This document shows, piece by piece, positions 5,468-29,707 of a stretch of DNA of 64,000 nucleotides (position 1 is its first letter; every line of letters begins with the position of its first letter). This DNA is from a virus (taxonomy: Duplodnaviria > Caudoviricetes): the IMG/VR virus record IMGVR_UViG_3300028048_000002, positions 64,001 through 128,000 of that record; one strand, given 5' to 3'. The translations under genes and the position numbers were made by a program. The notes beneath the pieces are model-generated. The model did not search any database and had not been told where the DNA came from. It saw only the letters and a list, made by a program, of their open reading frames with translations.

Positions 5468-5758
5468 TTAATAATCATATCCAAGTCTTTTATGATACTT
5501 AAGATAAGCATCAATGTCAGCTTTAAGCTCAGCTAAATTATAAGAATGACCACTTACTGTCTCTTGCAATTCATCATCTTCATCCGGATCCATCGACCAC
5601 CAATAAGATACTCCATCAATATCTCTATCTTTATACAACTCCGTCAATCTAACTTGTTGATATTTTGGAAGATTTTTAGCTACAGATTGATCTACATCAG
5701 GATTAGATGAAACTTGTATAGGTTTCCTACCTCTAGCAGCTTTGATAACTCGTTTCAT
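5468..5758 (-). CDS. MKRYIK-leader family protein (MKRVIKAA)
   Basis: Start reassigned to ATG 5758 behind GAAGGA; leader variant. Confidence 0.7.
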   Translation of the reverse strand: MKRVIKAARGRKPIQVSSNPDVDQSVAKNLPKYQQVRLTELYKDRDIDGVSYWWSMDPDEDDELQETVSGHSYNLAELKADIDAYLKYHKRLGYDY

Positions 5759-5762
5759 AATT

Positions 5763-6044
5763 CTATCCTTCATATAGTAACAAACCGTTTTTATGATCTA
5801 TATATCCAGAATCTTCGAGACTTTGCATGATGTCTTCATAAAGTTTATCTTCAAGCGCCTCTGTAAGAGTTGCATGAGTAGTGTAAAAATAATCTTGAAT
5901 TTGAGCATAAGTTTCAGATACTACATCATCATAACTAAAAGCTTCTCCACTTTCAATAAAATCTATAGTATTACTTAATGCTTCTTAATAACAAGCATCA
6001 TATACAGATTCGTTTAAACTGCTAGATTTAATATATCGTTTCAT
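5763..6044 (-). pseudogene. MKRYIK-leader gene with in-frame TAA at codon 20
   Basis: MKRYIKSSSLNESVYDACY*EALSNTIDF...LEDSGYIDHK; TAA at 5985-5987; body resembles the C-terminal domain of 6341..6796. Confidence 0.7.
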
Positions 6045-6071
6045 ACCGCACCTCTAATATCTATAATTTTA

Positions 6072-6287
6072 TTAATATTGTTTATCTATCATATCCTCGT
6101 AACAAGCTGAAGTGAGTTCTTCTAGAAAATCAGCAGTTTTATCATCCCAACCACTTGAACCACTAAACCATTCAAGACATTCAACTAAAAGACGACCATA
6201 ATCTTCATAAGTTGTGCAAATTTCGATGATAGTGTCATACATATCACCATCATATTCTTCTACTACTTTATCAAGCATTCCACGCAT
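6072..6287 (-). CDS. Small acidic hypothetical protein
   Basis: ORF with AAGGAG RBS. Confidence 0.6.
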   Translation of the reverse strand: MRGMLDKVVEEYDGDMYDTIIEICTTYEDYGRLLVECLEWFSGSSGWDDKTADFLEELTSACYEDMIDKQY

Positions 6288-6340
6288 TATACTTCTCCTT
6301 AATAAGAATGTAACAACAACTTAAAAATGATATAATCTTT

Positions 6341-6796
6341 CTAGTTAATATATCCTTCAAGTTCTAGTTGATCTAATACAGCATCTTCTATTTCATCCAT
6401 GTCATCAATATCTAGGTGCCCTGCAACTTTTGCAACTTGAGCATAAACTTCATGCCGTATTTCATATTCATCTGCAATATCACCGTAATCGATAGCAGAA
6501 GAAACATTAAGCACAATTTCTTCAATAAGCTGCTGTTTATTCATTGTTTCGTAATAGGTGGATGCTTTAACAGCTTTACCTTTACTTTTAAGATAATCGT
6601 AGTACTTAATAATATCTACAATACTCTTAAAATCAGAATCAGAAATAGTAGGACTGTTATTGTATTCTTGCCACCATGTAAGGATATCATTTGGATCAAG
6701 AGACAATATACCAGCATCATACGCTTCACAAACATGATTTCGGAATTGTGAATCCCACCAACGTGGCTTTCTAGCACATGCAATATATCTTTTCAT
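6341..6796 (-). CDS. MKRYIK-leader family protein (MKRYIACA) with internal VKAS motif
   Basis: Leader variant; two apparent domains separated by KAVKAS. Confidence 0.7.
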   Translation of the reverse strand: MKRYIACARKPRWWDSQFRNHVCEAYDAGILSLDPNDILTWWQEYNNSPTISDSDFKSIVDIIKYYDYLKSKGKAVKASTYYETMNKQQLIEEIVLNVSSAIDYGDIADEYEIRHEVYAQVAKVAGHLDIDDMDEIEDAVLDQLELEGYIN

Positions 6797-6814
6797 AAGT
6801 ATTATCCCCTTTAG

Positions 6815-7078
6815 CTAAAACAAAGATTCATCATCTTCCGCATCATATTCATATGCTGCTTCTTCAAGTTCCTCAGCTGCACGAACAAGATTTTCTCCGA
6901 GAGTTCCGATGTAATTTGCAAGCTCAGTATACGTAGAACAATATGTATATGCACCTCTTACACAGGTTTTAAGTTCGTAAGAAAGATTGTATATATCATC
7001 AAGAACTTCAAAAACTTGATCTAAATACTCTTCATCCCAACCTTCAAGGGAATTTGAAGCTTTAATTGACCTTTTCAT
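6815..7078 (-). CDS. MKRYIK-leader family protein (MKRSIKAS)
   Basis: Leader plus acidic body, AGGAG RBS. Confidence 0.7.
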   Translation of the reverse strand: MKRSIKASNSLEGWDEEYLDQVFEVLDDIYNLSYELKTCVRGAYTYCSTYTELANYIGTLGENLVRAAEELEEAAYEYDAEDDESLF

Positions 7079-7124
7079 ATTAACTCCTGTTTAAAAGACT
7101 TAAAACTTATAAGCGAATATAAGA

Positions 7125-7319
7125 TTAAACGCTAATGTATGCATTGTAATTAAGCGATTTGCAGAAAACCTGACATGAATCTGCTTCAACATCAGTAATG
7201 AGAATATCATGTCCACAGATACAAGTTATCGTGCAGTTCAAGGCATCTTCAAGAGATTCAATATCAGCATGAGTAGAACAATCATGATCACAAACAGGAC
7301 AATGGAAGTAAAATTTCAT
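7125..7319 (-). CDS. Small zinc-ribbon protein
   Basis: CPVC and CICG cysteine pairs, AGGAG RBS. Confidence 0.55.
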   Translation of the reverse strand: MKFYFHCPVCDHDCSTHADIESLEDALNCTITCICGHDILITDVEADSCQVFCKSLNYNAYISV

Positions 7320-7331
7320 ACCTGCTCCTTC

Positions 7332-7574
7332 CTACCAATACTCTATGCTAAGCTTTTCCCTAATCATAGACCACAAGACACATTCATCATCACCGTAGCT
7401 ACCATCAGGCCATTTCTTATTTGCAATCAGATCCAAAACATCTTCAATCTGCTCAAAGGAAAAAACTTGATCATTCTTGATAGCTTCTCGCCTATTATCA
7501 AACGTGGTCTTGCGCATATTGAACTCCTTAAAAATACATAAACAATGTTTGCTCAGATACTCCAAACTTTTCAC
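7332..7574 (-). CDS. Hypothetical protein (true start probably MRKTT)
   Basis: ORF track; AGGAG upstream of internal ATG. Confidence 0.5.
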   Translation of the reverse strand: MKSLEYLSKHCLCIFKEFNMRKTTFDNRREAIKNDQVFSFEQIEDVLDLIANKKWPDGSYGDDECVLWSMIREKLSIEYW

Positions 7575-7743
7575 AAAAGAACTTTACGCGTTTATCTAAT
7601 ACTTCAAGCCAATACTCTGCATTTTCCTTATCATAATCATTTCGATAAATGAAATAGTTAAACCAAGCTTGGCGAATGCTCTTGTTAGCCTTGATGAAAT
7701 TTTCTTCAATAGGAGCGTACAGATCTTCAAATTCTTCAGGCAT
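7528..7743 (-). CDS. Hypothetical protein
   Basis: ATG 7743 behind GGAAGGTGG. Confidence 0.55.
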   Translation of the reverse strand: MPEEFEDLYAPIEENFIKANKSIRQAWFNYFIYRNDYDKENAEYWLEVLDKRVKFFCEKFGVSEQTLFMYF

Positions 7744-7745
7744 TG

Positions 7746-8090
7746 TTAGACCACCTTCCACATCTTTTTAGGTTCAACACCTTGAGGCAGATAACTCCAC
7801 AAGAAATTAGGTTCTTCACAATTGAGAATAGCTTGAGCTTCATCGAGTTTATTTTCGCAAACAAGACGAATAACTTCACGAAGAGCTGCCAACTGGCAAT
7901 TAACAAGTTCTTGTTCTTTAGACAAATAAAACCCGCAGTAACGAGAGCAACCTTCGTAGCGATAAACAAAACCAGGGCTCTTAACTTTCCCACGACAATC
8001 CTTGGGAGGTGTGAGTTGCCCGCGCTTGAATACTTTATACAGAAGATTGCACTGCTTGCGGGTGAAGTAATCGTAACTGAGATAACTCAT
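7746..8090 (-). CDS. Hypothetical protein, probably early
   Basis: AGGAG RBS; directly downstream of a sigma70-type promoter. Confidence 0.6.
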   Translation of the reverse strand: MSYLSYDYFTRKQCNLLYKVFKRGQLTPPKDCRGKVKSPGFVYRYEGCSRYCGFYLSKEQELVNCQLAALREVIRLVCENKLDEAQAILNCEEPNFLWSYLPQGVEPKKMWKVV

Positions 8091-8130
8091 GATAGTCTCC
8101 TTTTGGATCTTTGATTTCTATCATGTAATT

Positions 8131-8159
8131 ATTGTATAGTAAGTTGTTGAAAAAGTCAA
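8131..8159 (-). promoter_or_regulatory. Host sigma70/sigmaA-type promoter
   Basis: TTGACT-N17-TACAAT. Confidence 0.75.
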
Positions 8160-8180
8160 TAGAAAGTTTACATTAATCTG

Positions 8181-8411
8181 CTAATACTCTAATAGTTCCT
8201 CAAACACTCTACGTGTAGCTTCTTGATAACTATCAGACGTTTCATAAGCATTTCCAAACATAACCTCTCCTAGATTTTGAATATTTTCATCATTTCTAAT
8301 ATCTTGAAGAGTCCTCCAATTTGAAAATTGATTATTTCTTATATCTAAAGCTCTATCAACAAAAGAATTAATACTGTCAAATTGATAGTTACTCCTAATA
8401 TAACGTTTCAT
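8181..8411 (-). CDS. MKRYIK-leader family protein (MKRYIRSN)
   Basis: Leader. Confidence 0.7.
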   Translation of the reverse strand: MKRYIRSNYQFDSINSFVDRALDIRNNQFSNWRTLQDIRNDENIQNLGEVMFGNAYETSDSYQEATRRVFEELLEY

Positions 8412-8414
8412 AAT

Positions 8415-8765
8415 CTACCTAACTTGCGGAATCAAATTGTCATCTAATTCATATGGGCCGTAAATAGTATACATCGTACCGTCATCTATAATGATGGTTT
8501 TGATGTGTTGTTTCTTAAACTTACTGAGGTCAATAGGTACTGTTTCATCTGCATAGAAATATTTGCCATCTTGATACTCTATATAGACTGAACCGTCCCC
8601 GCCGTATCCATCAACCCATGATTCTACACATTCAATCGCATATTGAAGAGCACGTTTTCTAGTAACTTCATCTACATGTGCTTCAAATTCACCATCAGTA
8701 TAAATCTTGAGTCCATCCTCTTCTCGCAACTCTAAGATATTTGATGAATTGATATATCGCTTCAT
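8415..8765 (-). CDS. MKRYIK-leader family protein (MKRYINSS)
   Basis: Leader at ATG 8765. Confidence 0.7.
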   Translation of the reverse strand: MKRYINSSNILELREEDGLKIYTDGEFEAHVDEVTRKRALQYAIECVESWVDGYGGDGSVYIEYQDGKYFYADETVPIDLSKFKKQHIKTIIIDDGTMYTIYGPYELDDNLIPQVR

Positions 8766-8850
8766 TACTTCTACCAATCTTAAATATGCTGCTTTTTATT
8801 ACAAGCTTTTCACTCATCTATTCATATATGAATGTTAGGAATTGATTACA

Positions 8851-9210
8851 TTATCTATATCCGTAATTTTCACGAGGTGGATTCCATTCATCTTCCACAG
8901 CCCTACGAACCTGTTCTTTTGTAGGCTCTTTAAAATTCCACCATTCATGAGAATTCAAATAATCTACCGCCTCCTGTGCAGTTTTAAATCCTCCAACACC
9001 TCCGGTATAACCTGAGGGATACGTAAAAGCTATAGAATAAGGATAATTACTAAATCCCATATATATCTTTATACGATATCCATCAATTTTCAACTCATAT
9101 TCAATGCAATGCTGTTCTGCATACTTAGTTTTAAAATCATACTCGTTTACATCAAACATATCAAGAGTCAATAACTTGGTAGAAGTAGCTGACTTTATAT
9201 ATCTTTTCAT
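8851..9210 (-). CDS. MKRYIK-leader family protein (MKRYIKSA)
   Basis: Leader. Confidence 0.7.
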   Translation of the reverse strand: MKRYIKSATSTKLLTLDMFDVNEYDFKTKYAEQHCIEYELKIDGYRIKIYMGFSNYPYSIAFTYPSGYTGGVGGFKTAQEAVDYLNSHEWWNFKEPTKEQVRRAVEDEWNPPRENYGYR

Positions 9211-9219
9211 GAAACTATC

Positions 9220-9591
9220 CTATCTTATGCTATTAGGAAAAATATGTTCATTATTTTTTAGGTGGAACCAAGCTCTCCCACAAAAATCTACTGCATCATA
9301 TGGTTCAAACATAAAATCTATGTCACCAGTATCTCTTTGTACTGCCGTTTCAAATCGTTTAAACAGATTCTTTACGAAAGAATATTCATAAAATTCAGAA
9401 GAACCTATATACTCATTGTAATCCGCTAACCAGATTAAAACAGAACCTTCTACACCATCATCTTCAACACGATAATGAAAATCACAATCATCAAAAAGTT
9501 CTAATTCCGTATTTTTAGAGTCTGCAATAGCTCGATCTAGATGAGGTAATCTCATTTTTAACTCTTTTGCAGCTTTTACATATCTTTTCAT
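9220..9591 (-). CDS. MKRYIK-leader family protein (MKRYVKAA)
   Basis: Leader. Confidence 0.7.
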   Translation of the reverse strand: MKRYVKAAKELKMRLPHLDRAIADSKNTELELFDDCDFHYRVEDDGVEGSVLIWLADYNEYIGSSEFYEYSFVKNLFKRFETAVQRDTGDIDFMFEPYDAVDFCGRAWFHLKNNEHIFPNSIR

Positions 9592-9639
9592 ATTAACGCC
9601 TTTCTTATTAATTTAAAATTTCAAACGATATTAAATTAA

Positions 9640-9852
9640 TCAACATCTAAAAAGAGAATATACAGCTTGCGCAAACCCTGATTTATATGCATTTGTTGCA
9701 GTTGCATAATCGGGATCTTTTAATGAAAGCTCATATATTCGTCTGCTACTATCATACATATATGTATCGCCTTTACTAAGGGTCATTGCTTTATCCCATC
9801 CAGCGTTAAATTCTGAATTGGTATCACGAGAAGATTTGATATAAATTTTCAT
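9640..9852 (-). CDS. MKRYIK-leader family protein (MKIYIKSS)
   Basis: Leader, AAGGAG RBS. Confidence 0.7.
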   Translation of the reverse strand: MKIYIKSSRDTNSEFNAGWDKAMTLSKGDTYMYDSSRRIYELSLKDPDYATATNAYKSGFAQAVYSLFRC

Positions 9853-10054: not shown

Positions 10055-10387
10055 TTATTCTGAATCTTCGTAATATCCACAATTTGCGCATGCTTTAGAT
10101 TCTGAATCATAATAATCTGCAACACCACATTGAGGACAAGGTGTTAAATCAACAGATCTAGAATTTCTAAACCGATTAATAGCATATTTAATAAACTTGT
10201 CAATGCAATCTCTAGCTCCAGATTCTACTTCTGTTTGAGTATAACCAAAACCCGAAGCTTTAATAGATTTAATGTCTATAGCATCAGGAACTACAAATAC
10301 ATATCCTTTATTTTTAGGCGCAATCACATATTCAATTCCAAAATATTCGGACTTAAAAGATTTTGATGCTTTAATGTATCTTTTCAT
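10055..10387 (-). CDS. MKRYIK-leader family protein with C-terminal zinc ribbon
   Basis: MKRYIKAS; CPQC..CANC. Confidence 0.7.
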   Translation of the reverse strand: MKRYIKASKSFKSEYFGIEYVIAPKNKGYVFVVPDAIDIKSIKASGFGYTQTEVESGARDCIDKFIKYAINRFRNSRSVDLTPCPQCGVADYYDSESKACANCGYYEDSE

Positions 10388-11507: not shown

Positions 11508-11510
11508 TAT

Positions 11511-12526: not shown

Positions 12527-12555
12527 ATTATAACCTATCTAAATAAAAAAGTCAA
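12527..12555 (-). promoter_or_regulatory. Host sigma70/sigmaA-type promoter
   Basis: TTGACT-N17-TATAAT. Confidence 0.8.
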
Positions 12556-14503: not shown

Positions 14504-14755
14504 TTATAAATCCCACGAATCATCTTCCCAAGGATCATGCAACGAATTAAATAACGGATATTCACAATCTTCATCATAAACTATGAAATACTCTCCATCT
14601 TGTAATTCGTAAAAACTATTTTCAATTACTTGACGAAGTGTAAGGTTATAACAATCTCTGGCAACTTCTCTATCAGTATTTATATCGCAAAATTGAACAT
14701 TATACCAATTTCATGTATCGTAATATTCATCAGATGATTTAATATATCTTTTCAT
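14504..14755 (-). pseudogene. MKRYIK-leader gene with in-frame TGA at codon 15
   Basis: MKRYIKSSDEYYDT*NWYNVQFCD...DDSWDL*; GAGG RBS; TGA at 14711-14713. Confidence 0.7.
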
Positions 14756-15584: not shown

Positions 15585-16259
15585 TTAGTACTCTTCATCA
15601 TCGATAGCATATTGAGAATCATTTAGAATATTTTCCAAATATTGTTTGTACATTTTTTTAAATGTTGCTTTAGTTTTAGATTGAATAGCTAATTCAATTA
15701 CATCTTCATTAAACATCTGATAATCATAATTTTCAGCAAGCTTTTGTTTAAAATCTGATGAATAAAACCAAATACCTCCCATACCCATTTGTGTGGAAGG
15801 TTCTAACACAACTCCTAATGTATCTTCAACTTCTTGTTGTATTTTTTCTAATTCCTCCCCAGCATCAGTTTGTGAATACAATGAATCAATTCCATCATTA
15901 GATTCTTGTTCTAGTTGATTACGCAGACCTTTCCATCCCCCTATAGGTATTTCCATTTGTATATAAAAATACAAAGAGTTAGAATAAAGACCTTGACCAG
16001 CTTCAATATTTGGATCATCTGTATATTTTAATAATTCAGATTTTAACTGTTCATCATATATTTTTTTATCGTGTTGAGATAAAATAATATCAGTAGAATA
16101 GTCATACCCAGTAAATTTTTTTCCTTTATCTGTATATGTATATTTTTTTATATTCTTTAACTCTATAGTACGACCTAAAACTTTAGAAAATAAATTTGCA
16201 ATTTGTTCTTTAGTTAATGGAATTGATTTAGATTGATTTGCTTTAATATATCTTTTCGT
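15585..16259 (-). CDS. MKRYIK-leader gene with ACG in place of ATG; C-terminal EPS-Q-GxG domain
   Basis: ACG AAA AGA TAT ATT AAA GCA AAT; frame open for 95 codons into the annotated 15585..15974 ORF. Confidence 0.6.
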   Translation of the reverse strand, partial: TKRYIKANQSKSIPLTKEQIANLFSKVLGRTIELKNIKKYTYTDKGKKFTGYDYSTDIILSQHDKKIYDEQLKSELLKYTDDPNIEAGQGLYSNSLYFYIQMEIPIGGWKGLRNQLEQESNDGIDSLYSQTDAGEELEKIQQEVEDTLGVVLEPSTQMGMGGIWFYSSDFKQKLAENYDYQMFNEDVIELAIQSKTKATFKKMYKQYLENILNDSQYAIDDEEY

Positions 16260-16321: not shown

Positions 16322-16633
16322 TTAATATTCTTCATTGTCATCAAAATCATACCAATCATAATCATAATAATGATTATGAACTATAGATCTAACAGAATTA
16401 CAAAATTCTTTGTTATCATAATCGGCAAATGGCAGCAAACTTTCGTAAATTCCGTCATCATCCATTTCAGTTATAATCAAAATGACATGCTCAAGTGTAA
16501 CTTCATATGCATCATCTTCACAATATTCTGGATAATTCTCCCAAATTTGATAAAGAATATCCAACGTAAGATCTTCTAGTAATTTTTCAGATATTCTGTT
16601 ATCACTGTTTGCAGCTTTGATATATCTTTTCAT
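16322..16633 (-). CDS. MKRYIK-leader family acidic protein
   Basis: MKRYIKAA. Confidence 0.7.
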   Translation of the reverse strand: MKRYIKAANSDNRISEKLLEDLTLDILYQIWENYPEYCEDDAYEVTLEHVILIITEMDDDGIYESLLPFADYDNKEFCNSVRSIVHNHYYDYDWYDFDDNEEY

Positions 16634-16680: not shown

Positions 16681-16966
16681 TTACAAAGCCTTCAAAGCTC
16701 GATTTACCCCTCTAGATATCTTACGCATGCCAGCATCAATTTCACCTTCGGTATCATCACCGTAGAAGTCAAATTCCGAATAAGATTTTCCCTATACCCA
16801 TTGACCATTTACACTTACATCAAACTCATAATGCAAGTTACCATCAGACCCAAAGTATGGTATCCCACGTAGGATTTTTCTCTTCTAATCTTTCACAAAT
16901 TTCATTAGGAACTAACGCATCTGGCACTTGTCCACTTACTTTTGAAGCTTTAATGTATCTTTTCAT
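16681..16966 (-). pseudogene. MKRYIK-leader gene with frameshift and TAG
   Basis: MKRYIKASKVSGQVPDAL... stops early; the shifted frame continues YFGSDGNLHYEFDVSVNGQWV*GKSYSEFDF...KAL*. Confidence 0.6.
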
Positions 16967-17192: not shown

Positions 17193-17819
17193 TTAATACT
17201 CCTCATCGTAATCTTCATCATAATAACCATAATCCGAAATATCGTCATAGAATTTAGCTTCTACGTCATCGTTGATTTCATCTCCAGGGAACTTATGCTC
17301 CATGTCTTTTTCAAACAATTCAAAAGCTTTATCATGAAAATCAGATCCAGAAAGCTCCCAATAAGCTGGATTATCGTTTACTATTTCAACATACTTAACA
17401 ACATCAAACTCATTTCCAGTTGAATCCGGTAATCCATGTATTACATAATCTTCAATAGTCTTTGCATATGCTCTCCTATTACGTTGTCCATTACGTTGTG
17501 GTTGAGGTGTTTTTTCTTTAAGAATTTCACGAATCTTCTTCATCTGTTCCTTACCGTATCCTGATTTGAGAATTTGATGAATCTGCCACATCTGAAGATT
17601 ATCGTATTCCGGGTCTGCATACCAAGATACGTCAACACCTTCTTCGAGGCCTCTGCGAATCTCATACATCTGATCCTTATCGTATTTCGGATCTGCGTAC
17701 ACAGATACGTCAAGGCCGTCTTCGAGACCATCGCGGATTTCTTTCATCTGCCACTTATCAAACACACCCATATTTTTGTAATCTTCAATTGTTTTTGCTG
17801 CTTTGATATATCTTTTCAT
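17193..17819 (-). CDS. MKRYIK-leader protein with 26-aa YADPKY repeats (2)
   Basis: MKRYIKAAKTIEDY; DVSxYADP repeats; acidic tail. Confidence 0.75.
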   Translation of the reverse strand: MKRYIKAAKTIEDYKNMGVFDKWQMKEIRDGLEDGLDVSVYADPKYDKDQMYEIRRGLEEGVDVSWYADPEYDNLQMWQIHQILKSGYGKEQMKKIREILKEKTPQPQRNGQRNRRAYAKTIEDYVIHGLPDSTGNEFDVVKYVEIVNDNPAYWELSGSDFHDKAFELFEKDMEHKFPGDEINDDVEAKFYDDISDYGYYDEDYDEEY

Positions 17820-18089: not shown

Positions 18090-18839
18090 TCAATACTCTA
18101 CATCGTCATAAAAATCATTCAAACTATATTCATCATCGAAATAAATAGGTTCAGATGTTCCTGCAAACTTCTCACGCATATATTTAACTTCATCTATCAT
18201 ATCAGGTATTTCAAATGCATGATGAGATCCTACGGATTCAAAGCAAACGTCAAGTGCCGCATCTTTAATCTGAGATATATCTGTTGGATCATCATAATAA
18301 TCAGGATCTTCTATAAACGATTTAACTACATCCTTTAAGTATGCCCACGAATACAAATCCAATTCCTGTGTAGCTACTTCAATTACCTTATCTCCGAGTA
18401 AAGCGCAATATTCAGAATCCAAACCATCTGATTTAATGGTTTGAATAATCTTAGATTTTACATCTTTTGCTTCTTTAGAAGTTTCACCTACTCTATTTTT
18501 CTTTTCTTTAAGGTTTTCACGAAGCTCCTTCATCTGCTTCCAACTATATTTCGGATCTGCATATACCGAAACATCAAGACCCTTTTCGAGACCTTGATAA
18601 ATCATGAGCATCTGGTATTTATCATATTTTGGGTCTGCGTACCAAGATACGTCAACACCATTTTTGAGTCCTACAAAAATCTGAAGCATCTGGTCTGCAT
18701 TATATTTCGGGTCTGCATATATAGATACATCAACCCCCTCTTCGAGACCTCTACGGATCCAGCGCATCTGGTCATCATCAAAAACACCCATCTGTTCATA
18801 ATCTTCAATTGTTTTTGCAGCTTTGATATATCTTTTCAT
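18090..18839 (-). CDS. MKRYIK-leader protein with 26-aa YADPKY repeats (3)
   Basis: Leader + repeats + unique acidic C-terminal domain. Confidence 0.75.
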   Translation of the reverse strand: MKRYIKAAKTIEDYEQMGVFDDDQMRWIRRGLEEGVDVSIYADPKYNADQMLQIFVGLKNGVDVSWYADPKYDKYQMLMIYQGLEKGLDVSVYADPKYSWKQMKELRENLKEKKNRVGETSKEAKDVKSKIIQTIKSDGLDSEYCALLGDKVIEVATQELDLYSWAYLKDVVKSFIEDPDYYDDPTDISQIKDAALDVCFESVGSHHAFEIPDMIDEVKYMREKFAGTSEPIYFDDEYSLNDFYDDVEY

Positions 18840-20134: not shown

Positions 20135-20911
20135 CTACTCCTCAAATGCGTACTCGTTGAGAATATTCTCGAGATAAGCTCGATACTTCTTTTTGAACTC
20201 AGTTTTGTTTTTGGATTCAATGGCTATATCTATTGTTTCGTTGTTAAAGGTTTGGTAATCATAATTGGAAGCTAGTGTACTGTCATCTTCATTAGACAGG
20301 AACCAAATACCTCCTTGCCCGCCCTGTATTGAGGGTTCTAGCCAAATTCCGAGCGCGTTTTCAACTTCTTGTTGAATGGATTCAAGTTTTTCACCCGCCT
20401 CTGTTTGCTCATACAAGGGATCAATTCCGTCTTCAGCTTCACGTTGTAAGTTATTTACAAGTGATTTCCAGTTAATGCGTTTTGATTTACCTGCACCTTC
20501 TAATTCTTCACGGATTTGCTTCATCTGCTTATTATCATATTTCGGATCTGCATACTGGGAAACATCTAAACCTGAGGAGAGGCCGTAACGAATTTGCCTC
20601 ATCTGCTTCCAACTATATTTCGGATCTGCGTACACAGATACATCAAGACCTTTTTCAAGACCCTCACGGATCTCCCACATCTGCTCCCAATCGTATTTTG
20701 GGTCTGCGTACACAGATACATCGACACCGTCTTCAAGTCCTTGAAGAATCTGACCCATCTCCATAGATCCAAATTTCTTAGGGTCTGCGTACACAGATAC
20801 ATCAAGACCCTTTTCGAGACCATCACGAATCTTCTCCATCTGGTACCTATCAAACACACCCATGTTTTCATAATCTTCAATTGTTTTTGCGGATTTTATG
20901 TATCTTTTCAT
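20135..20911 (-). CDS. MKRYIK-leader protein, 4 YADPKY repeats + EPS-Q-GxG domain
   Basis: Leader, repeats, WKSLVNNLQREAEDGID...LEPSIQGGQGGIWF. Confidence 0.75.
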   Translation of the reverse strand: MKRYIKSAKTIEDYENMGVFDRYQMEKIRDGLEKGLDVSVYADPKKFGSMEMGQILQGLEDGVDVSVYADPKYDWEQMWEIREGLEKGLDVSVYADPKYSWKQMRQIRYGLSSGLDVSQYADPKYDNKQMKQIREELEGAGKSKRINWKSLVNNLQREAEDGIDPLYEQTEAGEKLESIQQEVENALGIWLEPSIQGGQGGIWFLSNEDDSTLASNYDYQTFNNETIDIAIESKNKTEFKKKYRAYLENILNEYAFEE

Positions 20912-21212: not shown

Positions 21213-21764
21213 CTACTTAGTCATTTTTTTAATCCAACCTTGTACTTGATCATCAATATCTTCAATTGCATCTAAATATGAATTATAGATTTTATTATTT
21301 ACAATAATTGTTTTAGCATAGGGGATTAAACTTTTTCCATGTGTAAATTTGAGTAATTCTGGTGATTTTAATTCTTCCTTTTTGTTCTTCTGCTGTTTTT
21401 TAGTTCTATGTGCTTTATGATTTGAAATTCTTAAACGTAATCTAAATTTTAAAACTATATTACCTGCATTATCTTTAGCTAAGAAATTATAGTAATATGA
21501 ATTATTTTCAGAAGTATCAAAATATGTAAGTTCTAATCCGTAATTATCTATCAACAAGTCTTCTACAGACTCAACAAAATCTTCATAATCAGCAAGAAGC
21601 TGCTCAGAAATTATCGCATCTTTATCTCCAGGAATTACTTCACCATCAGGAATATACAAACCTTTATAGCTAGCAGATAAAATTTCAAAATCTTGATAAG
21701 CTTGTATTACTACATCAATCTCTTTTATTTGAGTTTGTATATTAGATTTAATATATCTTTTCAT
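21213..21764 (-). CDS. MKRYIK-leader family protein
   Basis: MKRYIKSN; AAGGAGG RBS; LRISNH motif. Confidence 0.7.
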   Translation of the reverse strand: MKRYIKSNIQTQIKEIDVVIQAYQDFEILSASYKGLYIPDGEVIPGDKDAIISEQLLADYEDFVESVEDLLIDNYGLELTYFDTSENNSYYYNFLAKDNAGNIVLKFRLRLRISNHKAHRTKKQQKNKKEELKSPELLKFTHGKSLIPYAKTIIVNNKIYNSYLDAIEDIDDQVQGWIKKMTK

Positions 21765-21880: not shown

Positions 21881-22531
21881 TTAATATTTTTTAAATTCTG
21901 ATCTTAAATTACGGCGATACTCAGACAAATTCTTAGATTTTAATATTATATTCATCATAGTATATAACCATTCTTGATAATCTAGTTCATATAACGCTTC
22001 ACCATATTTATTCATTACTAGCATAACCCCTTCACCAGCTTGAGTGCTTCCTTCAAAGTATATCCCTAGATTATTTGCTTCTGTATTTATTATACCATTA
22101 AAATAATTAGCTTCTTCTGTATCATCATCTAAACCATAATCAGAATTTTCTAAGGCTTGAACCATTGTTATCCATTTACTTGATTTACTTTTATTTTTAT
22201 TTTCTAATGATAATTCTTTACTATCTTCTCTATTTTTCGCAGCACGATATGCATTCAATATATCTGAATATCCGCAACTATCATAAAAATTTTCGGATCT
22301 TTTATATACTTCAGGAAAATCTTGCATAAAAAGTTCTTTTGCAAGAGTTCGTTTACTAAACATAATTATATCATAGATGCTATCCTCTGAAATATTAGGA
22401 TATTCTCTAAGTATTTCTGATTCTAATGTTTCGAAGTCAGGAAAAGGCGTATCATAAAGTATATTATTTTTTACATATTTTTCAAGTCCTTCATATACAA
22501 AATTTTCTGAAGCTTTGATGTATCTTTTCAT
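21881..22531 (-). CDS. MKRYIK-leader protein with divergent EPS-Q-GxG domain
   Basis: MKRYIKAS; FEGSTQAGEGVM...DYQEW. Confidence 0.7.
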   Translation of the reverse strand: MKRYIKASENFVYEGLEKYVKNNILYDTPFPDFETLESEILREYPNISEDSIYDIIMFSKRTLAKELFMQDFPEVYKRSENFYDSCGYSDILNAYRAAKNREDSKELSLENKNKSKSSKWITMVQALENSDYGLDDDTEEANYFNGIINTEANNLGIYFEGSTQAGEGVMLVMNKYGEALYELDYQEWLYTMMNIILKSKNLSEYRRNLRSEFKKY

Positions 22532-22534: not shown

Positions 22535-23314
22535 TTACTCCTCAACTGCATATTCTTCGAGAATATTCTCGAGGTAAGCCTTATAACGTTTTTTATACTC
22601 AGTCTTATTTTTAGATTCAATAGCCATGTCTACCGTGTCTTCGTTGAAGGTTTGGTAATCGTAGTTGGAAACTAATGTGCTATCATCTTCACTCGATCGG
22701 AACCAGATGCCGCCCCTCCCAGCTTGTACTGAGGGTTCGAGCCAAATTCCGAGAGCATTTTCAACTTCTTGTTGGATTGATTCAAGTTTTGAACCCGCAT
22801 CTGTTTGCTTATACAGGGAATCAATTCCGTCTTCAGCTTCACGTTGTAAGTTATTTACAAGTGATTTCCAGTTAATGCGTTTTGATTTACCGGCACCTCC
22901 TGATTCGAGACCTTTACGGATTTCAAGCATCTGTTCCCAATCATATTTCGGATCTGCATACTGGGAAACATCTACACCTGAGAAGAGGCCATAAAGAATT
23001 TGCCTCATCTGTGATCTAGCATATTTCGGATCTGCATACCAGGAAACATCTACACCCATATTGAGGCCGGACCAAATTTCGTGCATCTGTTCATAATCGT
23101 ATTTCGGATCTGCATACACCGATACATCTAAACCCTTTTGAAGTCCATAACGAATTACCTTCATCTGTTCCCAGTCATATTTCGGATCTGTATACCAGGA
23201 AACATCTACACCGTCTTCAAGGCCTATACGGATTTCTCTCAGCTGCTTATCATCAAACACACCCATAGCTTCATAATCTTCAATGGTTTTTGATGCTTTA
23301 ATGTATCTTTTCAT
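22535..23314 (-). CDS. MKRYIK-leader protein, 4 YADPKY repeats + EPS-Q-GxG domain
   Basis: Close paralogue of 20135..20911. Confidence 0.75.
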   Translation of the reverse strand: MKRYIKASKTIEDYEAMGVFDDKQLREIRIGLEDGVDVSWYTDPKYDWEQMKVIRYGLQKGLDVSVYADPKYDYEQMHEIWSGLNMGVDVSWYADPKYARSQMRQILYGLFSGVDVSQYADPKYDWEQMLEIRKGLESGGAGKSKRINWKSLVNNLQREAEDGIDSLYKQTDAGSKLESIQQEVENALGIWLEPSVQAGRGGIWFRSSEDDSTLVSNYDYQTFNEDTVDMAIESKNKTEYKKRYKAYLENILEEYAVEE

Positions 23315-23380: not shown

Positions 23381-23950
23381 TTAATATTGTCCATAACCTT
23401 CAAATACATCAGCTAAGTATGATTCAATATCATCTGGATACTCAATATTTGCTGCATCTAGCTTCTCAAGCATTTCATCAATACAAGCATCTTCAAATTC
23501 GTCATCCCATAAATCTGTAGTGTCATTAAGATATGAAATAACTTCGTCTTTATAGCGATTTACAAACTGCTCAACATCTTCTCCAGGCCAATCTTCATCT
23601 TCATCATCCGAAGCACAGATGTTAGTTGATGCAGAAACCCATGTAAACTGTTTCAATTGATCTATAATCGCTTGAGGATTAGAAATTTTACTTCTATTAG
23701 CATCTTCAAGTATATCGATATATTCTTCAAGTCTAGCGATCAAATTCTCAGATTCTGAAATACTATATCTAATCTTTCTCTTAATATCATCCTCAGCTTG
23801 ACGATATTTTTTCGGATCTGAAATTGTAATTAGATTTTCTAGCTCATCTATAATCCGCTGTCTAGATGCTGTATAATTTCTAGGAGCTGGATTATTATAA
23901 TATCTTCCATATGCACGACCAGAAGCTGATTTAATATATTTTTTCATCAT
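23381..23950 (-). CDS. MKRYIK-leader protein (MMKKYIKSAS) with internal VSAS/ICAS motifs
   Basis: C-terminal acidic domain shared with 27566..28447. Confidence 0.7.
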   Translation of the reverse strand: MMKKYIKSASGRAYGRYYNNPAPRNYTASRQRIIDELENLITISDPKKYRQAEDDIKRKIRYSISESENLIARLEEYIDILEDANRSKISNPQAIIDQLKQFTWVSASTNICASDDEDEDWPGEDVEQFVNRYKDEVISYLNDTTDLWDDEFEDACIDEMLEKLDAANIEYPDDIESYLADVFEGYGQY

Positions 23951-24031: not shown

Positions 24032-24451
24032 CTAAAGTTTATATACATAGTGTCCGTTTTCATCTATTCGACCACGACGACGAAGTTCATCAATAGTAGA
24101 TTCATCTCCCCCTAAATCAAAAATCGCATCATCGATGTCAACATCACTCATACCTGAATCAATCCAGTCGTCTAATTGTGAGTCTACTATATCTACTATA
24201 AGAGACGATTCCGATTTATTTACAACATTCGAAAGTAAATGTGTCAGTTCTGCAATTATATTAATAAGTTGTTGTTTATTAACTCCTGTAAGAAATCCGT
24301 CAGGTCCTTCATCGCTTTCCTGCGCACCATTATCAATTAAGATTTCTTCGACTAACTGAGTATCGCAATATTGCATTGCATAGTCATAAACAAACATCAC
24401 AGCATCTTGTAAAGCCGAAATGCTTGAAGCAGCTTTAATATATCGTTTCAT
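24032..24451 (-). CDS. MKRYIK-leader family protein
   Basis: MKRYIKAAS. Confidence 0.7.
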   Translation of the reverse strand: MKRYIKAASSISALQDAVMFVYDYAMQYCDTQLVEEILIDNGAQESDEGPDGFLTGVNKQQLINIIAELTHLLSNVVNKSESSLIVDIVDSQLDDWIDSGMSDVDIDDAIFDLGGDESTIDELRRRGRIDENGHYVYKL

Positions 24452-24568: not shown

Positions 24569-25336
24569 TTAGATAAACGTTAATTCAATATTACCTGTAC
24601 CCGAAGATAATTTCAATACATAATTATCAGAATTAAATTTTTCTAGTATTGAAAGTACGTATTCTTTTATTTTTCTATTGTACCTTTTTGCTAAATGTTG
24701 ATTTTGACTGCCGAGATCTATATAACCTGTCCACGTTAATCTGAAATTATAATTATTTAATTGATCTATTTCTTCTGGTAAGAATACATTGTTGTAATTA
24801 ACAGCACTTAGAAGAGTTTTACCTGTATATGTTTTATCACCTGTAGGTATTTTCGGTCCACTTAAAATAAATTTGTTTTTATTCTTTTTAGTTACTAAGG
24901 ATTCATCAAAAGGCTTATCTGAAATAACGTTAAATATTTCTTCTAAAATATCTAACGCTTCTTCAAATTTATCATTTTTAGAATTTACTTTTAGATATTT
25001 TTGACGTAATAGTTGTCTTTTTCGATTAAACTCACTTCTAGACATATGACCTCTAGCAGTTGTTATGTATTCATAATTATCATAGTCAGCTAAACCAAAT
25101 TCAACTACACTATCATAGTCATAACCAGAATTTAAAGATTCTTCTAAATAAGCTTTTAAATCATCTACATATGCGTAATCTGCCCAAATATCTCCAAGGT
25201 CTTCGTCATTATATATTTCTATACCACCGTTTTTAATTGAAATTTTACATCCTTGGTCTCGTTTAAACTTGATCGCATCTTTAAATAACGTATCAATATA
25301 TTCATATTCAAATGATGCTTTAATGTATCGTTTCAT
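24569..25336 (-). CDS. MKRYIK-leader family protein
   Basis: MKRYIKAS at ATG 25336. Confidence 0.7.
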   Translation of the reverse strand: MKRYIKASFEYEYIDTLFKDAIKFKRDQGCKISIKNGGIEIYNDEDLGDIWADYAYVDDLKAYLEESLNSGYDYDSVVEFGLADYDNYEYITTARGHMSRSEFNRKRQLLRQKYLKVNSKNDKFEEALDILEEIFNVISDKPFDESLVTKKNKNKFILSGPKIPTGDKTYTGKTLLSAVNYNNVFLPEEIDQLNNYNFRLTWTGYIDLGSQNQHLAKRYNRKIKEYVLSILEKFNSDNYVLKLSSGTGNIELTFI

Positions 25337-25632
25337 TATTTCCACCAATCATCGCTATTTTGCTTTTTATTCCAGGCTTTCCAATCCTCTAGTTCTAATG
25401 CAGTCGTATTAGAAGGAATCCAGAAACCTTGAGATGTATATTTAAGCTTAGACCATTTATCTCCTAAATTAGCCCATAATGAACCATCGTTACTCTCATA
25501 TACTTGTAAATCATCATAATTCTTTCCCCAATAAGAAAACGATACAGTTTCATTTGTAGGTTGTAATTCAACTTCTTTATTACCATGAAATTGAGTTTTA
25601 ACTGTAATTGATGATCTTATGTATAGTTTCAT
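25336..25632 (-). CDS. MKRYIK-leader family protein (MKLYIRSS)
   Basis: Leader variant at ATG 25632. Confidence 0.65.
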   Translation of the reverse strand: MKLYIRSSITVKTQFHGNKEVELQPTNETVSFSYWGKNYDDLQVYESNDGSLWANLGDKWSKLKYTSQGFWIPSNTTALELEDWKAWNKKQNSDDWWK

Positions 25633-25713
25633 ATGATTAATCATCTCTCTACTAAATCTAAAAGATGGTGTTCTCGAGCACCTAAGCTATTAGAAACCAC
25701 CAAAGATTATCTT

Positions 25714-26415
25714 TCACATCCTATCTGCGCGGGTGTTCCATGCAGTTATAGCTTCGGCTTCAGATGGATAATTGTCTATGAAATGCCCGTGGCTTTGTTC
25801 GCTCTGCAAATCCGATTCGCAGAAAACACCATAGACCTTACAATCATCGTCGTATTCGAGCACTTTCACGCTTGCTTCTCCCCCGCAGAAAGGACAAAGC
25901 TCCGTTACCTTCCTTCCACAGCCTAGCTCGGCGATTCTCGCAATCGCGTCATCTGATGTGTGTCCGTCCCATTCGGGCGCGTACTCACGCTCCTTGCAGT
26001 CGAACATCTCCCAGTACGGGTCGAGGTCGTAGTGGTACGTGGCCTGGCCTTTCGGAGTATCGATACCGACTATGAACATGCCGTCGTACATCGTGCCGTC
26101 GTGGTGCTTGAGAGCTTTCCACGCAAGCTCTCTATGGTCGCGTACAATCACACTGAACAGCACCGCCCTGTGATGGTACAGCTCGTTGAACGTGTGGTAT
26201 CCGTCACTCGTGTTACCGTTGATTTCGCTCCCCAGCGTCGCGGCTATGGCCTGCTCGGGCGTGACCGCCATTATCAGCTTCGCGCTAGGTGTGAGCTGCA
26301 TGGCTGTGAAGCCGTTCCAGCTCGTCTCGCACGCGCCCATGTGGTCGTTCGTCGTGTACTCGATGCCGCGCTCTGTTAGCTTGGCACGCAGCTCGGTCGT
26401 TCGGTTGTCGATCAT
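25714..26415 (-). CDS. WDGH-motif domain fused to Lar-like (restriction alleviation) zinc finger; GC-rich
   Basis: SDGYHTFNELYHHR..APEWDGHT; CPFCGGEA..C..AITAWNTR. Confidence 0.65.
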   Translation of the reverse strand: MIDNRTTELRAKLTERGIEYTTNDHMGACETSWNGFTAMQLTPSAKLIMAVTPEQAIAATLGSEINGNTSDGYHTFNELYHHRAVLFSVIVRDHRELAWKALKHHDGTMYDGMFIVGIDTPKGQATYHYDLDPYWEMFDCKEREYAPEWDGHTSDDAIARIAELGCGRKVTELCPFCGGEASVKVLEYDDDCKVYGVFCESDLQSEQSHGHFIDNYPSEAEAITAWNTRADRM

Positions 26416-26495
26416 CGCGCTACCTCTCAATAAATAACAACAGTCCAATAAAGTTCAAAGCGCATATCAACAAAGCGATGATTATTGCGATCGCG

Positions 26496-26729
26496 CTAGG
26501 CTTCGCACACTTCTATGTCTATTACGCGTGTATTCCATTTCTTTGCAGCTGCTTCAATAGCGTCTACGGGTGTCTTATATCCACATCTGCTTGTTTCAAG
26601 ATTGAAATTACATTCTGGACAATGTGTGTATGCTGACCACGATTCATCACCTAACACATTTGTCCATCGTTTTGGCAAAGGTTCCCCTACTTCGTTTCCA
26701 CAAAACGGACACGGTTTCAGCTCGATCAT
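26496..26729 (-). CDS. Lar-family restriction alleviation-like protein
   Basis: ELKPCPFCG...CPEC...AAKKWNTR. Confidence 0.65.
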   Translation of the reverse strand: MIELKPCPFCGNEVGEPLPKRWTNVLGDESWSAYTHCPECNFNLETSRCGYKTPVDAIEAAAKKWNTRVIDIEVCEA

Positions 26730-26792
26730 TCGCTCTCTTCTTTCACCTCGACCTCAAAAGAATTCGCGTTATATTTACTTACCCATTTTTCC

Positions 26793-27563
26793 TTACAGTC
26801 TACATAAATTCGTAAGATAACTCTCGTAGCTTGATTTGAATTCAGCTTCATTTGAAGCGTTTGCGGCTAAATAAAAGATGTCATTGTTGAAATCATTATA
26901 ATCATAATCTTCCACCAAAGCTTCATCAGTAGAATTATCCCAAATCCAAACGCTACCGACTCCAGCTTGAACTGAGGGCTCTACGTAAATATCGAGTCTT
27001 TCTTCTACTTGCTTACATAAGCTGTTTAAATACCTTCCAGCTTCTGTTTGTTCATATAAAGAATCAATACCGCTTTCAGCTTCACTTTCTAACTTATCGA
27101 AGAGTGATTTCCAGATGGGTGTTGATTTTTTCTGAGGCTTGAGCAAACCCTGCAGCTCCCAACGAATTTGCTGCATCTGCGACCAACTATATTTCGGATC
27201 TGTATATAAAGATACGTCAACACCGGATTCGAGACCTTTGCGAATTTGCTCCATCTGATGGTCATCATATTCCGGATCTGCATATTGGAAAACATCTATA
27301 CCGGATTCGAGGCCTCTACGAATTTCCCTCATCTGCGACCAACCATATTTTGGATCTGCGTACTCAGATACGTCAATACCGGATTCGAGGCCGCGACGGA
27401 TTTCAATCATCTGCGACCAATCATATTTCTTTGGATCTGCGTACACAGACACATCAACACCGTTTTTGAATCCTTCACGAATCTGATCCATCTGATTTCT
27501 GTCAAAAACACCCATATTTTCGTAATCTTCAAGGGTTTTTGATGATTTTATATATCTTTTCAT
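26793..27563 (-). CDS. MKRYIK-leader protein, 4 YADPKY repeats + EPS-Q-GxG domain
   Basis: Leader, repeats, VEPSVQAGVGSVW. Confidence 0.75.
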   Translation of the reverse strand: MKRYIKSSKTLEDYENMGVFDRNQMDQIREGFKNGVDVSVYADPKKYDWSQMIEIRRGLESGIDVSEYADPKYGWSQMREIRRGLESGIDVFQYADPEYDDHQMEQIRKGLESGVDVSLYTDPKYSWSQMQQIRWELQGLLKPQKKSTPIWKSLFDKLESEAESGIDSLYEQTEAGRYLNSLCKQVEERLDIYVEPSVQAGVGSVWIWDNSTDEALVEDYDYNDFNNDIFYLAANASNEAEFKSSYESYLTNLCRL

Positions 27564-27565
27564 AA

Positions 27566-28447
27566 TTAGTATCTTTCAAACATATCAACTAAGTAAGATT
27601 CAACATCATCGGAAACATACAAGCCTTGCTTCTCTAACATATCAATCATCTTATCTATACATTCATCTTCAAAATCCTCATCCCCAAGGTCTGTTGTATC
27701 ATTTATGTAAGAAACAACTTCATCTTTATGTTTTTCTGCGAATGCAATTGCTTCTTTATAATCTTCATCTCCGTTGAGAATATTCTCGAGGTAATCCTGG
27801 TAACGTTTTTTGAACTCAGTCTTATTTTTAGATTCGATAGCCATATCTATTGTGTCTTCGTTAAACGTTTGGTAATCGTAATTGGAAGCTAGTGTGCTGT
27901 CATCTTCACTCGAATAGAACCAGATACCTCCCCTCCCAGCTTGTATTGAGGGTTCTAGCCAAATTCCGAGAGCATTTTCAACTTCTTGCTGGATGGATTC
28001 GAGTTTTGAACCCGCATCTGTTTGCTTATAAAGGGAATCAATTCCATCTTCTGCTTCTCTTTGTAGCTGATTTACAAGTGATTTCCAGTTTAAACGTTTT
28101 TGTTTTGTGGGTTTTTCGAGGCCTTTACGGATCTTGCTCATCTGCTCCCAATCGTATTTTAGATCTGCGTACACAGAAACATCAAGACCTTTTTCAAGAC
28201 CCTCACGGATCTCCTCCATCTGCGCAGAATTAAATTTCGGATCTGCATACCAAGATACGTCAACACCTTTTTCAAGGCCTTCGCGAATCTCGCTCATCTG
28301 TGCCCAAATGTATTTTGGATCTGCGTATACAGATACGTCAACACCTTTTTCAAGGCCTTCGCGGATCTCGTTCATCTGATACTCATTAAATACACCCATG
28401 TTTGCATAATCTTCAATTGTTTTTGCTGCTTTTATGTATCTTTTCAT
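27566..28447 (-). CDS. MKRYIK-leader protein, 3 YADPKY repeats + EPS-Q-GxG domain + acidic domain
   Basis: Modular paralogue; KDEVVSYINDTTDL domain shared with 23381. Confidence 0.75.
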   Translation of the reverse strand: MKRYIKAAKTIEDYANMGVFNEYQMNEIREGLEKGVDVSVYADPKYIWAQMSEIREGLEKGVDVSWYADPKFNSAQMEEIREGLEKGLDVSVYADLKYDWEQMSKIRKGLEKPTKQKRLNWKSLVNQLQREAEDGIDSLYKQTDAGSKLESIQQEVENALGIWLEPSIQAGRGGIWFYSSEDDSTLASNYDYQTFNEDTIDMAIESKNKTEFKKRYQDYLENILNGDEDYKEAIAFAEKHKDEVVSYINDTTDLGDEDFEDECIDKMIDMLEKQGLYVSDDVESYLVDMFERY

Positions 28448-28492
28448 TTTTACTTATCCTTTTTATTTATTAAACCAAGCAATTTCATCTAG

Positions 28493-28873
28493 TTATGCAT
28501 AATCTTTTAAATAATATTTAGCTTCATCCCACTTCCTAATAGCTTTATCATATCCATATAGTAACCAATATCTGATAGCTTTCATTTTTCTCCAAGTATA
28601 TTTAGGATTCATATATTCTTCTACATCTACACCATCAATTAAACCCATACGAATCTGACCCATTTGTTTTGCATCAAATCTTGGATCTGCATATATATCA
28701 ACATCTACATTATCTGAAAGTCCTAATTTAATTTGATGCAATTGATCTTTTGTAAATCCTTGTTCTTCATATTCAGACATTATCATTTTATACCCAGCAG
28801 ATTTTTCTCTACTAGATAATTCTGGAAAAGGCTTATTCCAATTACGATAAGATGCTTTAACATATATTTTCAT
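28493..28873 (-). CDS. MKRYIK-leader protein (MKIYVKAS), 2 divergent YADP repeats
   Basis: DVDIYADPRF, DVEEYMNPKY. Confidence 0.7.
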   Translation of the reverse strand: MKIYVKASYRNWNKPFPELSSREKSAGYKMIMSEYEEQGFTKDQLHQIKLGLSDNVDVDIYADPRFDAKQMGQIRMGLIDGVDVEEYMNPKYTWRKMKAIRYWLLYGYDKAIRKWDEAKYYLKDYA

Positions 28874-28910
28874 ATAGTACCTTCTTCTATATATAGCATT
28901 TATTATACTG

Positions 28911-28939
28911 ATTGTAAGTTATAACACAATATAAGTCAA
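28911..28939 (-). promoter_or_regulatory. Host sigma70/sigmaA-type promoter
   Basis: TTGACT-N17-TACAAT. Confidence 0.7.
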
Positions 28940-28955
28940 TACTAAACTAAAAAAT

Positions 28956-29438
28956 CTAATCTACTTCATTATCCGTACAGTAGTATATTCCATCAGAAGG
29001 AATTAATTCTTTTGCAATATCTTGATAAAGTGTAGAAGTAAGCCCATGCAGATCTCCAGCATTATCGCTATAATACTGAACTACTTCCTTCTTGAATGAT
29101 ACAAAACACATAGGATTAGATAATTCATCAAATTCAATGGTTTGAATATCTACAACAGCTGGATTCCCTTCAAAAGCTTTCTTTACTATTGAAGCTTTCC
29201 AGTTATCTAAATTTGCCGGAATTACATTAATTAATACTTCTACATTACCAAACTGCTTAGTCATAGGAAGCAACTGAGCAATAGCTTCAGCTTTAGAGGC
29301 ATTATCTACATAAACTTTTAAAATTAAATTATCATCATCAAACTCTACATTAACTTCAGGATCAACTCCAAACAAAGCATCAACTTGACGATAATATACC
29401 TCCCAAGGTGCAGAAAGACTTAGATTCTCATTAAACAT
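28956..29438 (-). CDS. Hypothetical phage protein
   Basis: ORF with AGGAG RBS. Confidence 0.6.
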   Translation of the reverse strand: MFNENLSLSAPWEVYYRQVDALFGVDPEVNVEFDDDNLILKVYVDNASKAEAIAQLLPMTKQFGNVEVLINVIPANLDNWKASIVKKAFEGNPAVVDIQTIEFDELSNPMCFVSFKKEVVQYYSDNAGDLHGLTSTLYQDIAKELIPSDGIYYCTDNEVD

Positions 29439-29470
29439 TGTTACTCCTATCTTATATTTTTGAAATTATT

Positions 29471-29707
29471 CTAGAGTCTATCATACACAGACTTTACGTG
29501 ACCATTTCGTATATACGATTTAGCCTGACCTATTAAAGCTTTAAAATAATCCATACACGATTCAGCAGCTTCATCTAAAGTTAGCCCATAATCCTCACAC
29601 AAATTTAATAAATTGCCTTCAATATCTTCTAGAAGGTCTTCTTCAGATAATAAATTTCTAGGATCAGTTTCTACATATCTTGTATTTGCAAAAACTTTTT
29701 TCTTCAT
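29471..29707 (-). CDS. Possible leader-variant protein (MKKKVFAN)
   Basis: Basic N-terminus ending V-x-A, acidic body. Confidence 0.5.
   Translation of the reverse strand: MKKKVFANTRYVETDPRNLLSEEDLLEDIEGNLLNLCEDYGLTLDEAAESCMDYFKALIGQAKSYIRNGHVKSVYDRL

Follow-up and report, generated by a model that had tools for sequence, protein, structure and literature searches.

The 64,000-nucleotide stretch of phage DNA analysed here (the window) spans bases 64001-128000 of the 162,817-bp IMG/VR virus record IMGVR_UViG_3300028048_000002, a genome in which about 30 small proteins start with the same peptide of 7-8 residues, M-K-[R/K/I]-Y-[I/V]-[K/R]-[A/S] (MKRYIKA/S). Judged by sequence comparison and by analogy with known head-assembly systems, this tag is probably a capsid-targeting leader of the phage T4 type that has been re-coded for an assemblin-like protease cutting between Ala and Ser. 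In the mechanism we propose, the MK-x-Y residues would confer affinity for the assembling prohead core, and the [I/V]-x-[A/S] residues would form the recognition site of a head protease with the gp21 fold, one that would cut after [I/V]-x-[A/S] where a small residue follows, in the manner of herpesvirus assemblin and unlike T4 gp21, which cuts after Glu. The seven-residue tag would be removed by this protease inside the prohead, and what is left, mostly small and acidic bodies, would accompany the DNA and be delivered into the host when the virion next infects a cell. Cleavage, packaging, ejection and the function of the cargo are steps that we infer.

With direct terminal repeats, the full record is estimated to be 100% complete; its G+C content is 33.4%, and nearly all genes are on its minus strand. 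Scanning the starts of open reading frames (ORFs) with the regular expression MK[RKIL]Y[IV][KR][AS][ASN], one-residue variants being allowed, yielded 23 intact tagged genes in the window, all on the minus strand between positions 5468 and 28873 and encoding 70-293 residues, as well as four decayed copies (two with early stops, one 40-residue stump and one with ACG for ATG) and, outside the window, a second array of ten tagged genes at genome positions 3645-7748. In a six-frame translation of the entire genome, the core K[RKIL]Y[IV][KR][AS][ASN] occurred 26 times, directly after the start Met in 24 cases, all of these on the coding strand, and never internal to a protein; by our own estimate, about 0.002 occurrences would be expected by chance among the 3,126 candidate starts. 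The residues right after position 8 are polar or acidic, and no hydrophobic core of at least 10 residues, as in a Sec, Tat or lipoprotein signal peptide, was found in the 32 N-termini read directly. A literature search for the string MKRYIK found no paper containing it.

Codons vary synonymously at every position of the tag (Arg as AGA, CGA, CGT, CGG or AGG; Ile as ATT, ATC or ATA; Tyr as TAT or TAC; Ala and Ser as GCN, TCN or AGT), Ala and Ser replace each other, and a Shine-Dalgarno sequence is the sole element common to the 45 nucleotides upstream of the tagged genes. Since synonymous variation is free and the upstream DNA is not conserved, selection acts on the peptide and not on the DNA. 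Tyr4 is at least 90% invariant in 150 tagged proteins and is the most conserved residue after Met1 and Lys2. The tag is therefore a real, strictly N-terminal element selected at the peptide level. A sequence-only reading of this DNA had already described a leader shared by many genes and conserved as peptide rather than as DNA, and both the ORF-start and six-frame scans and the codon and upstream comparisons bear it out. Its array is real, but its count of about 25 intact and five decayed copies drops to 23 and four in the window, two of its starts, at 29707 (MKKKVFAN) and 11507 (MKYIVSSE), being too weak to count. The motif scan of the whole genome and of related phages that it had called for found the core at N-termini only and the tag in related phages as well.

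No close relative was found in the phage collection, where the best capsid match was to Bacillus phage HSE3 (27% identity), a phage without a tag array whose capsid protein starts with an acidic, T4-like N-terminus. IMG/VR held 57 loci with a capsid protein 60-67% identical, and an exact search with the back-translated tag returned 55 stretches, many of them on the contigs of these capsid loci; 129 further distinct tagged proteins came from the IMG/VR loci. In metagenome-assembled genomes of 1.8-4.0 Mb that contain a contig of such a phage, matches to the tag pattern were nearly confined to that contig and to a single strand; the reversed-pattern controls gave 0-1 matches. Of five more contigs with the tag, three carry a gene for the same capsid protein and two have a single match each. 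Tagged genes are inserted beside the protease gene in the head operon of three relatives (L016, L122 and L045), and a tagged DUF5662 homologue is inserted in the baseplate operon of another clade member (L141). These comparisons identify the tag as a character of a clade of uncultured gut and rumen phages, whose host is probably a gut or rumen Firmicute. A capsid protein of 61% identity, the protease-scaffold and the variant tags MYRYIKAA, MKRYIKSG and MKIYRKSKTVSAS also occur in an island of about 145 kb in the chromosome of Ruminococcus callidus ATCC 27760 (about 1.430-1.575 Mb; L129-L138), with 36-39% G+C compared to 47-49%, which may offer a cultivable system and a clue to the host of the clade.

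The head protease is encoded upstream of the capsid gene (genome 15532-16998) as a protein of 488 residues, an N-terminal domain followed by a coiled coil. A structural model of residues 1-165 (mean predicted local distance difference test score, pLDDT, 87) has T4 gp21 (5JBL) as its best fold match, with a template modelling score of 0.66, a root-mean-square deviation of 2.0 Å and 23% identity, and herpesvirus proteases come next (E ~1e-3). The protein matches the PHROG head maturation protease family at 3.8e-21, and its His59 and Ser114 are invariant in 24 relatives. A profile search of the protease-scaffold against PDB sequences returned coiled coils only, and the placement came from the fold search. 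The model gives the protease a gp21/assemblin fold, and its fusion to a coiled-coil scaffold has its counterpart in herpesvirus pUL26. With 54.9 bits, the capsid protein exceeds the cut-off for Pfam Gp23. When the protease domain was modelled in complex with residues 1-40 of a tagged protein, the score was 0.02, which speaks neither for nor against binding.

Three sets of head proteins point to the specificity of this protease. The N-terminal part of the capsid protein, compared across 43 sequences, is basic, variable and rich in indels up to an invariant boundary, [IV]-[TMN]-[AG]↓ATNT (I64-T-A↓A67 in this phage), which lies about 30 residues before a VFGSVAM block that we aligned with the GVQPM block of T4, where gp23 is cut. 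When all 211 proteins of the genome were ranked by enrichment of [IV]x[AS][ASG] over the expectation from their own composition, the protease-scaffold came first, with 10 sites versus 2.3 expected (z 5.3), followed by the capsid protein with 9 versus 3.2, and these two top the ranking in nearly every relative; the reversed motif, a Leu/Met variant and the [LI]xE motif of T4 were not enriched in the same ranking. Aligned protease-scaffolds have the motif sites at fixed columns within a variable coiled coil, with a conserved [IV]-A-A-S right after the protease domain and V-T-A-S close to the scaffold's C-terminal end. The third is a small acidic head protein (genome 12572-12892), likely an internal core peptide precursor from its sequence, with a basic N-terminal tail ending in [IV]-x-A and a basic C-terminal tail preceded by V-x-A-S, tails and bounds that are kept in all its orthologues. 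The protease thus appears to cut [I/V]-x-[A/S]↓small residue rather than the L/I-x-E of T4, and the end of the tag, I-K-[A/S]-[A/S], is the same motif that the capsid, scaffold and core proteins suggest. Longer tag variants, such as MKIYRKSKTVSAS and MKKFTKHPITAS, hold the motif at a distance.

What follows the tag is highly diverse. BLAST clustering divides the 161 tagged proteins of the clade, including those of this phage, into 124 groups, of which 105 have a single member, and all-against-all BLASTP of the bodies of this phage's own members left about 22 of 32 as singletons. By the same comparison, eight genes of the window form one paralogous, LRV-like repeat family, which later matched Pfam LRV in a relative, and two genes of array 1 are a further related pair. 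The sequence-only reading had called the bodies mostly unrelated, which holds for the full set and is overstated for the window, given these eight paralogues; it had also called them often acidic, in agreement with a median isoelectric point of 4.7 (tag excluded) at a median length of 119 residues. Scans of 17 different members of this phage against Pfam or PHROGs gave no match above the family cut-off. Among 150 tagged proteins, Pfam matches were to LRV (6), DUF5662 (2), GNAT (2), S-adenosylmethionine (SAM) lyase (1) and SoxZ (1), with some individual cases borne out by separate scans, and only seven PHROG families were matched; the SAM-lyase match could not be traced to an individual tagged protein by phmmer with the T3 SAMase or by 30 single Pfam scans.

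DUF5662 provides a direct view of the tag as a separable part. Some of 120 homologues in the database start at the conserved EYxxYLxxHIxGV block and are hence untagged, while others start with MKRYI[KR][AS]S and a linker of 5-20 residues, or with an MKRVI-type start. One of the untagged homologues belongs to a different phage of 178 kb in which no neighbouring gene is tagged. In the AlphaFold model of a tagged homologue (mean pLDDT 93), the first 14 residues are without secondary structure and the first ten have a pLDDT of 54, so that in this model the tag is an exposed, unstructured tail ahead of a folded domain. Its occurrence on unrelated folds, and its presence or absence within DUF5662, indicate that the tag is portable.

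DUF5662 itself (L101:6351-6884; P0004-P0123) may be a phosphohydrolase: its H, HD, H and HH residues are invariant, and the fold matches of its model, all weak, are to HD-GYP and other HD hydrolases. In the unrelated phage with the untagged homologue (L139:8875-9561), the accessory block that holds this homologue also encodes a Tad3 (anti-Thoeris) family protein and a GNAT protein. Amid the window array (25714-26729), two untagged genes encode Lar restriction-alleviation proteins, one also with a WDGH domain, and the 2-kb bin around them has 43% G+C versus about 33% elsewhere, resembling an imported anti-restriction cassette. An anti-defence role of the tagged proteins may be suggested, on thin evidence, by one SAM-lyase match, two GNAT matches and the neighbouring untagged Lar-like genes.

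Altogether, the likening of the tag to the targeting sequence of T4 internal proteins, first made from the window alone, is partly supported, by a gp23-type capsid protein, a protease of the gp21 fold, a matching putative cleavage motif, the portability of the tag and the insertion of tagged genes in head and baseplate operons of relatives. We hold more tentatively to the wider claim that a gp21-fold protease of the herpesvirus Ala↓Ser type and its matching tag load about 30 proteins per genome (about 15% of genes, more than 120 families) for delivery with the DNA, which we regard as possible rather than probable. If true, no larger repertoire of tag-addressed cargo would be known, and a single regular expression would list more than 120 families of candidate virion-delivered effectors, almost all unannotated. 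The seven residues would then serve as a ready protein-delivery label with which phages of gut Firmicutes could be loaded with chosen proteins. An Ala↓Ser code combined with a fusion of protease and scaffold would also tighten the link between capsid maturation in phages and herpesviruses, and tag and protease specificity would change together.

Several observations weigh against a re-coded T4-type leader. The cleavage code is drawn from comparisons only, and its motif carries little information: by our own estimate, about 3% of random 8-mers would contain it. Tagged bodies have 67 internal [IV]x[AS][ASG] sites versus 53.5 expected, as in other proteins, although a protease that cuts every exposed site should have led to their depletion. 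Position 7 is not a small residue in some tag variants, among them MKRVINMNPR and MKRVMKHNPR of DUF5662 homologues. The protease scores 23.5-24.7 bits against Pfam S77, below the family cut-off of 27. Compared with T4 MKTYQEFIAE, the tag has only M-K-x-Y in common, and whereas IPII and IPIII of T4 are basic DNA-binding proteins, the bodies here are acidic (median isoelectric point 4.7). A T4-type late promoter, TATAAATA, was not enriched (26 on the coding strand versus 20 on the other), and strong host-type promoters, TATTGACTTT-N17-TATAAT, stand at the head of both arrays and also within them.

The sequence-only reading had noted a host-type promoter before one tagged gene as a caveat, correctly so, and the caveat extends to both arrays. 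A sigma-70 consensus scan over the array gave 123 sites versus 112 expected, which is background level, and only strict TTGACT-N17-TAnnnT sites were taken as the informative class. In the window, such sites, all on the minus strand, are found at the head of the array (TTGACT-N17-TACAAT, 28911..28939), inside the region before an untagged gene (TTGACT-N17-TATAAT, 12527..12555) and inside the array (TTGACT-N17-TACAAT, 8131..8159). From their sequence, the array promoters fit early expression. The ipI, ipII and ipIII genes of T4, however, lie directly behind early promoters of the GTTTAC type, so host-type promoters are not counted against a packaged leader and do not separate the models. A TCGTTAATA box is also present upstream of several genes, and its promoter class could not be assigned. 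Another box, (C)ATATCAA(A/T)A(A/C)TC, occurs 15-25 nucleotides downstream of most of the strong TATTGACTTT-N17-TATAAT promoters (genome 162069, 146378, 138766, 129901, 49731, 42757 and 8082; window 8159) and may be a shared 5' leader element of early transcripts.

In one alternative reading, the tag is a substrate of the head protease but no packaging signal, and its bearers are early cytoplasmic takeover factors that would be trimmed late, for regulation or as a by-product. Host-type promoters at the head of both arrays, the acidity of the bodies, a typical trait of early takeover proteins, and the fit of the tag to the putative protease motif would all agree with this. Nonetheless, loss of seven disordered residues would rarely alter activity, Tyr4 is conserved outside the minimal cleavage motif and its equivalent in T4 governs targeting (PMC9026906), and tagged genes lie within the head and baseplate operons of relatives. 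We consider late trimming of this kind unlikely, though it has the best chance of the alternatives.

Synonymous variation at every position, together with the Ala/Ser changes, indicates selection on the peptide, which argues against an A/U-rich translation booster, despite codon 2 being AAA in 30 of 32 members compared to 75% genome-wide. A signal for a host chaperone, an adaptor of an AAA+ protease or a component of the N-end rule would be another form of such an expression or stability tag, and the resemblance of the arrays to early gene blocks would suit it. Near-invariance of Tyr4, the presence of untagged DUF5662 homologues outside the clade and the coincidence with the motif of capsid, scaffold and core proteins, which would be left unexplained, make an expression or stability tag a small possibility. 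With the function of most genes in the genome unassigned, the tag might also be recognized by a different enzyme or transporter of the phage, one by which many proteins are modified or exported. But no radical-SAM gene (PF04055) was found in the complete genome, with 14 of 14 control genomes positive, the tag has no hydrophobic signal-peptide core, and the head protease is the only motif-matching partner found, so we think this quite improbable. Descent from one family that diverged except at the N-terminus, to which the eight true paralogues of the window and the resemblance of the arrays to tandem duplications might point, is very improbable given that unrelated Pfam folds are tagged (GNAT, DUF5662, LRV, SoxZ, SAM lyase) and that DUF5662 occurs with or without the tag and with linkers of differing length.

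The tagged genes of the window, all on the minus strand, are as follows. Members of the LRV-like repeat family are at 28493..28873 (MKIYVKAS, 126 residues), 27566..28447 (MKRYIKAA, 293), 26793..27563 (MKRYIKSS, 256), 22535..23314 (MKRYIKAS, 259), 20135..20911 (MKRYIKSA, 258), 18090..18839 (MKRYIKAA, 249) and 17193..17819 (MKRYIKAA, 208), and the gene at 21881..22531 (MKRYIKAS, 216) has only the C-terminal domain of this family in common. Singletons are at 25336..25632 (MKLYIRSS, 98 residues), 24569..25336 (MKRYIKAS, 255, with no Pfam or PHROG match), 24032..24451 (MKRYIKAA, 139), 23381..23947 (MKKYIKSA, 188), 21213..21764 (MKRYIKSN, 183), 16322..16633 (MKRYIKAA, 103), 10055..10387 (MKRYIKAS, 110), 9640..9852 (MKIYIKSS, 70), 8851..9210 (MKRYIKSA, 119), 8415..8765 (MKRYINSS, 116) and 8181..8411 (MKRYIRSN, 76). 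The gene at 9220..9591 (MKRYVKAA, 123) has one homologue in a relative, and variant tags are found at 6815..7078 (MKRSIKAS, 87), 6341..6796 (MKRYIACA, 151) and 5468..5758 (MKRVIKAA, 96). Decayed members, also on the minus strand, are at 16844..16966 (MKRYIKAS, stop after 40 residues), 14711..14755 (MKRYIKSS, stop after 13 codons) and 5985..6044 (MKRYIKSS, stop after 18 codons); at 15585..16259 a decayed or non-canonical member has an intact Shine-Dalgarno sequence, ACG for ATG, then KRYIKAN and an open frame of 223 codons.

The only sizeable plus-strand ORF inside the array (window 18975-20081) encodes 368 residues without a Pfam match, with terminator-like hairpins near its 3' end, and may be a mobile insertion. 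Three proteins encoded at window 1039-4995 and 29729-30622 have in common a different N-terminus, M(T/S)xKY(L/V)G...L..VW..IK, which we take to be reminiscent of tail fibres; the first two lie within a patch of 44-45% G+C.

Among known systems, phiKZ-like phages and the giant phage SPN3US resemble the system proposed here in that a gp21-related protease processes many of the proteins packaged in their heads, but their processing is after Glu, and we know of no common short N-terminal tag described for their ejection and inner-body proteins. T4 offers the closest parallel. Its gp21 cuts after L/I-x-E, and in its capsid-targeting sequence the targeting depends on residues 4 and 7 and the processing on residues 8 and 10, a sequence that, according to a review, may be a general route for T4-like phages to load various proteins (PMC9026906). 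The internal proteins of T-even phages are diverse except for this targeting sequence (PMC3012670). As in T4, a short N-terminal peptide starting M-K-x-[Y/F] is borne here by unrelated small proteins and ends in the putative cut motif of the phage's own gp21-type protease. IPII and IPIII start with MKTYQEFIAE, whereas IPI starts with MKTFKEF...ITE, its ITE lying 19 residues in, a distance echoed by the motif in the longer tag variants. Early-type promoters, an accessory-gene setting and rapid turnover of bodies between related phages are further features shared with the ip genes. The tag here differs in its length (7-8 residues versus 10-19), in a predicted cut after Ala or Ser versus Glu, in the number of tagged genes per genome (about 30 versus three), and in a host that is probably a gut or rumen Firmicute.

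Herpesviruses are not known to us to use a release or maturation site as an N-terminal cargo tag, and the protease described here differs from assemblin in belonging to a bacterial virus and in having T4 gp21 as its closest structure. Likeness to assemblin (pUL26) lies in the protease fold and in the fusion of an N-terminal protease to a scaffold, and extends to the sites: pUL26 is a protease-scaffold fusion with the release site YLQA-T and the maturation site VQA-S (PMC4498786), and this (V/L/I)-x-A↓S pattern is matched by the putative sites [IV]-A-A↓S after the protease domain and V-T-A↓S near the scaffold's C-terminal end. The release site Y-L-Q-A↓T, moreover, resembles the Y-I-K-A↓S of the tag itself.

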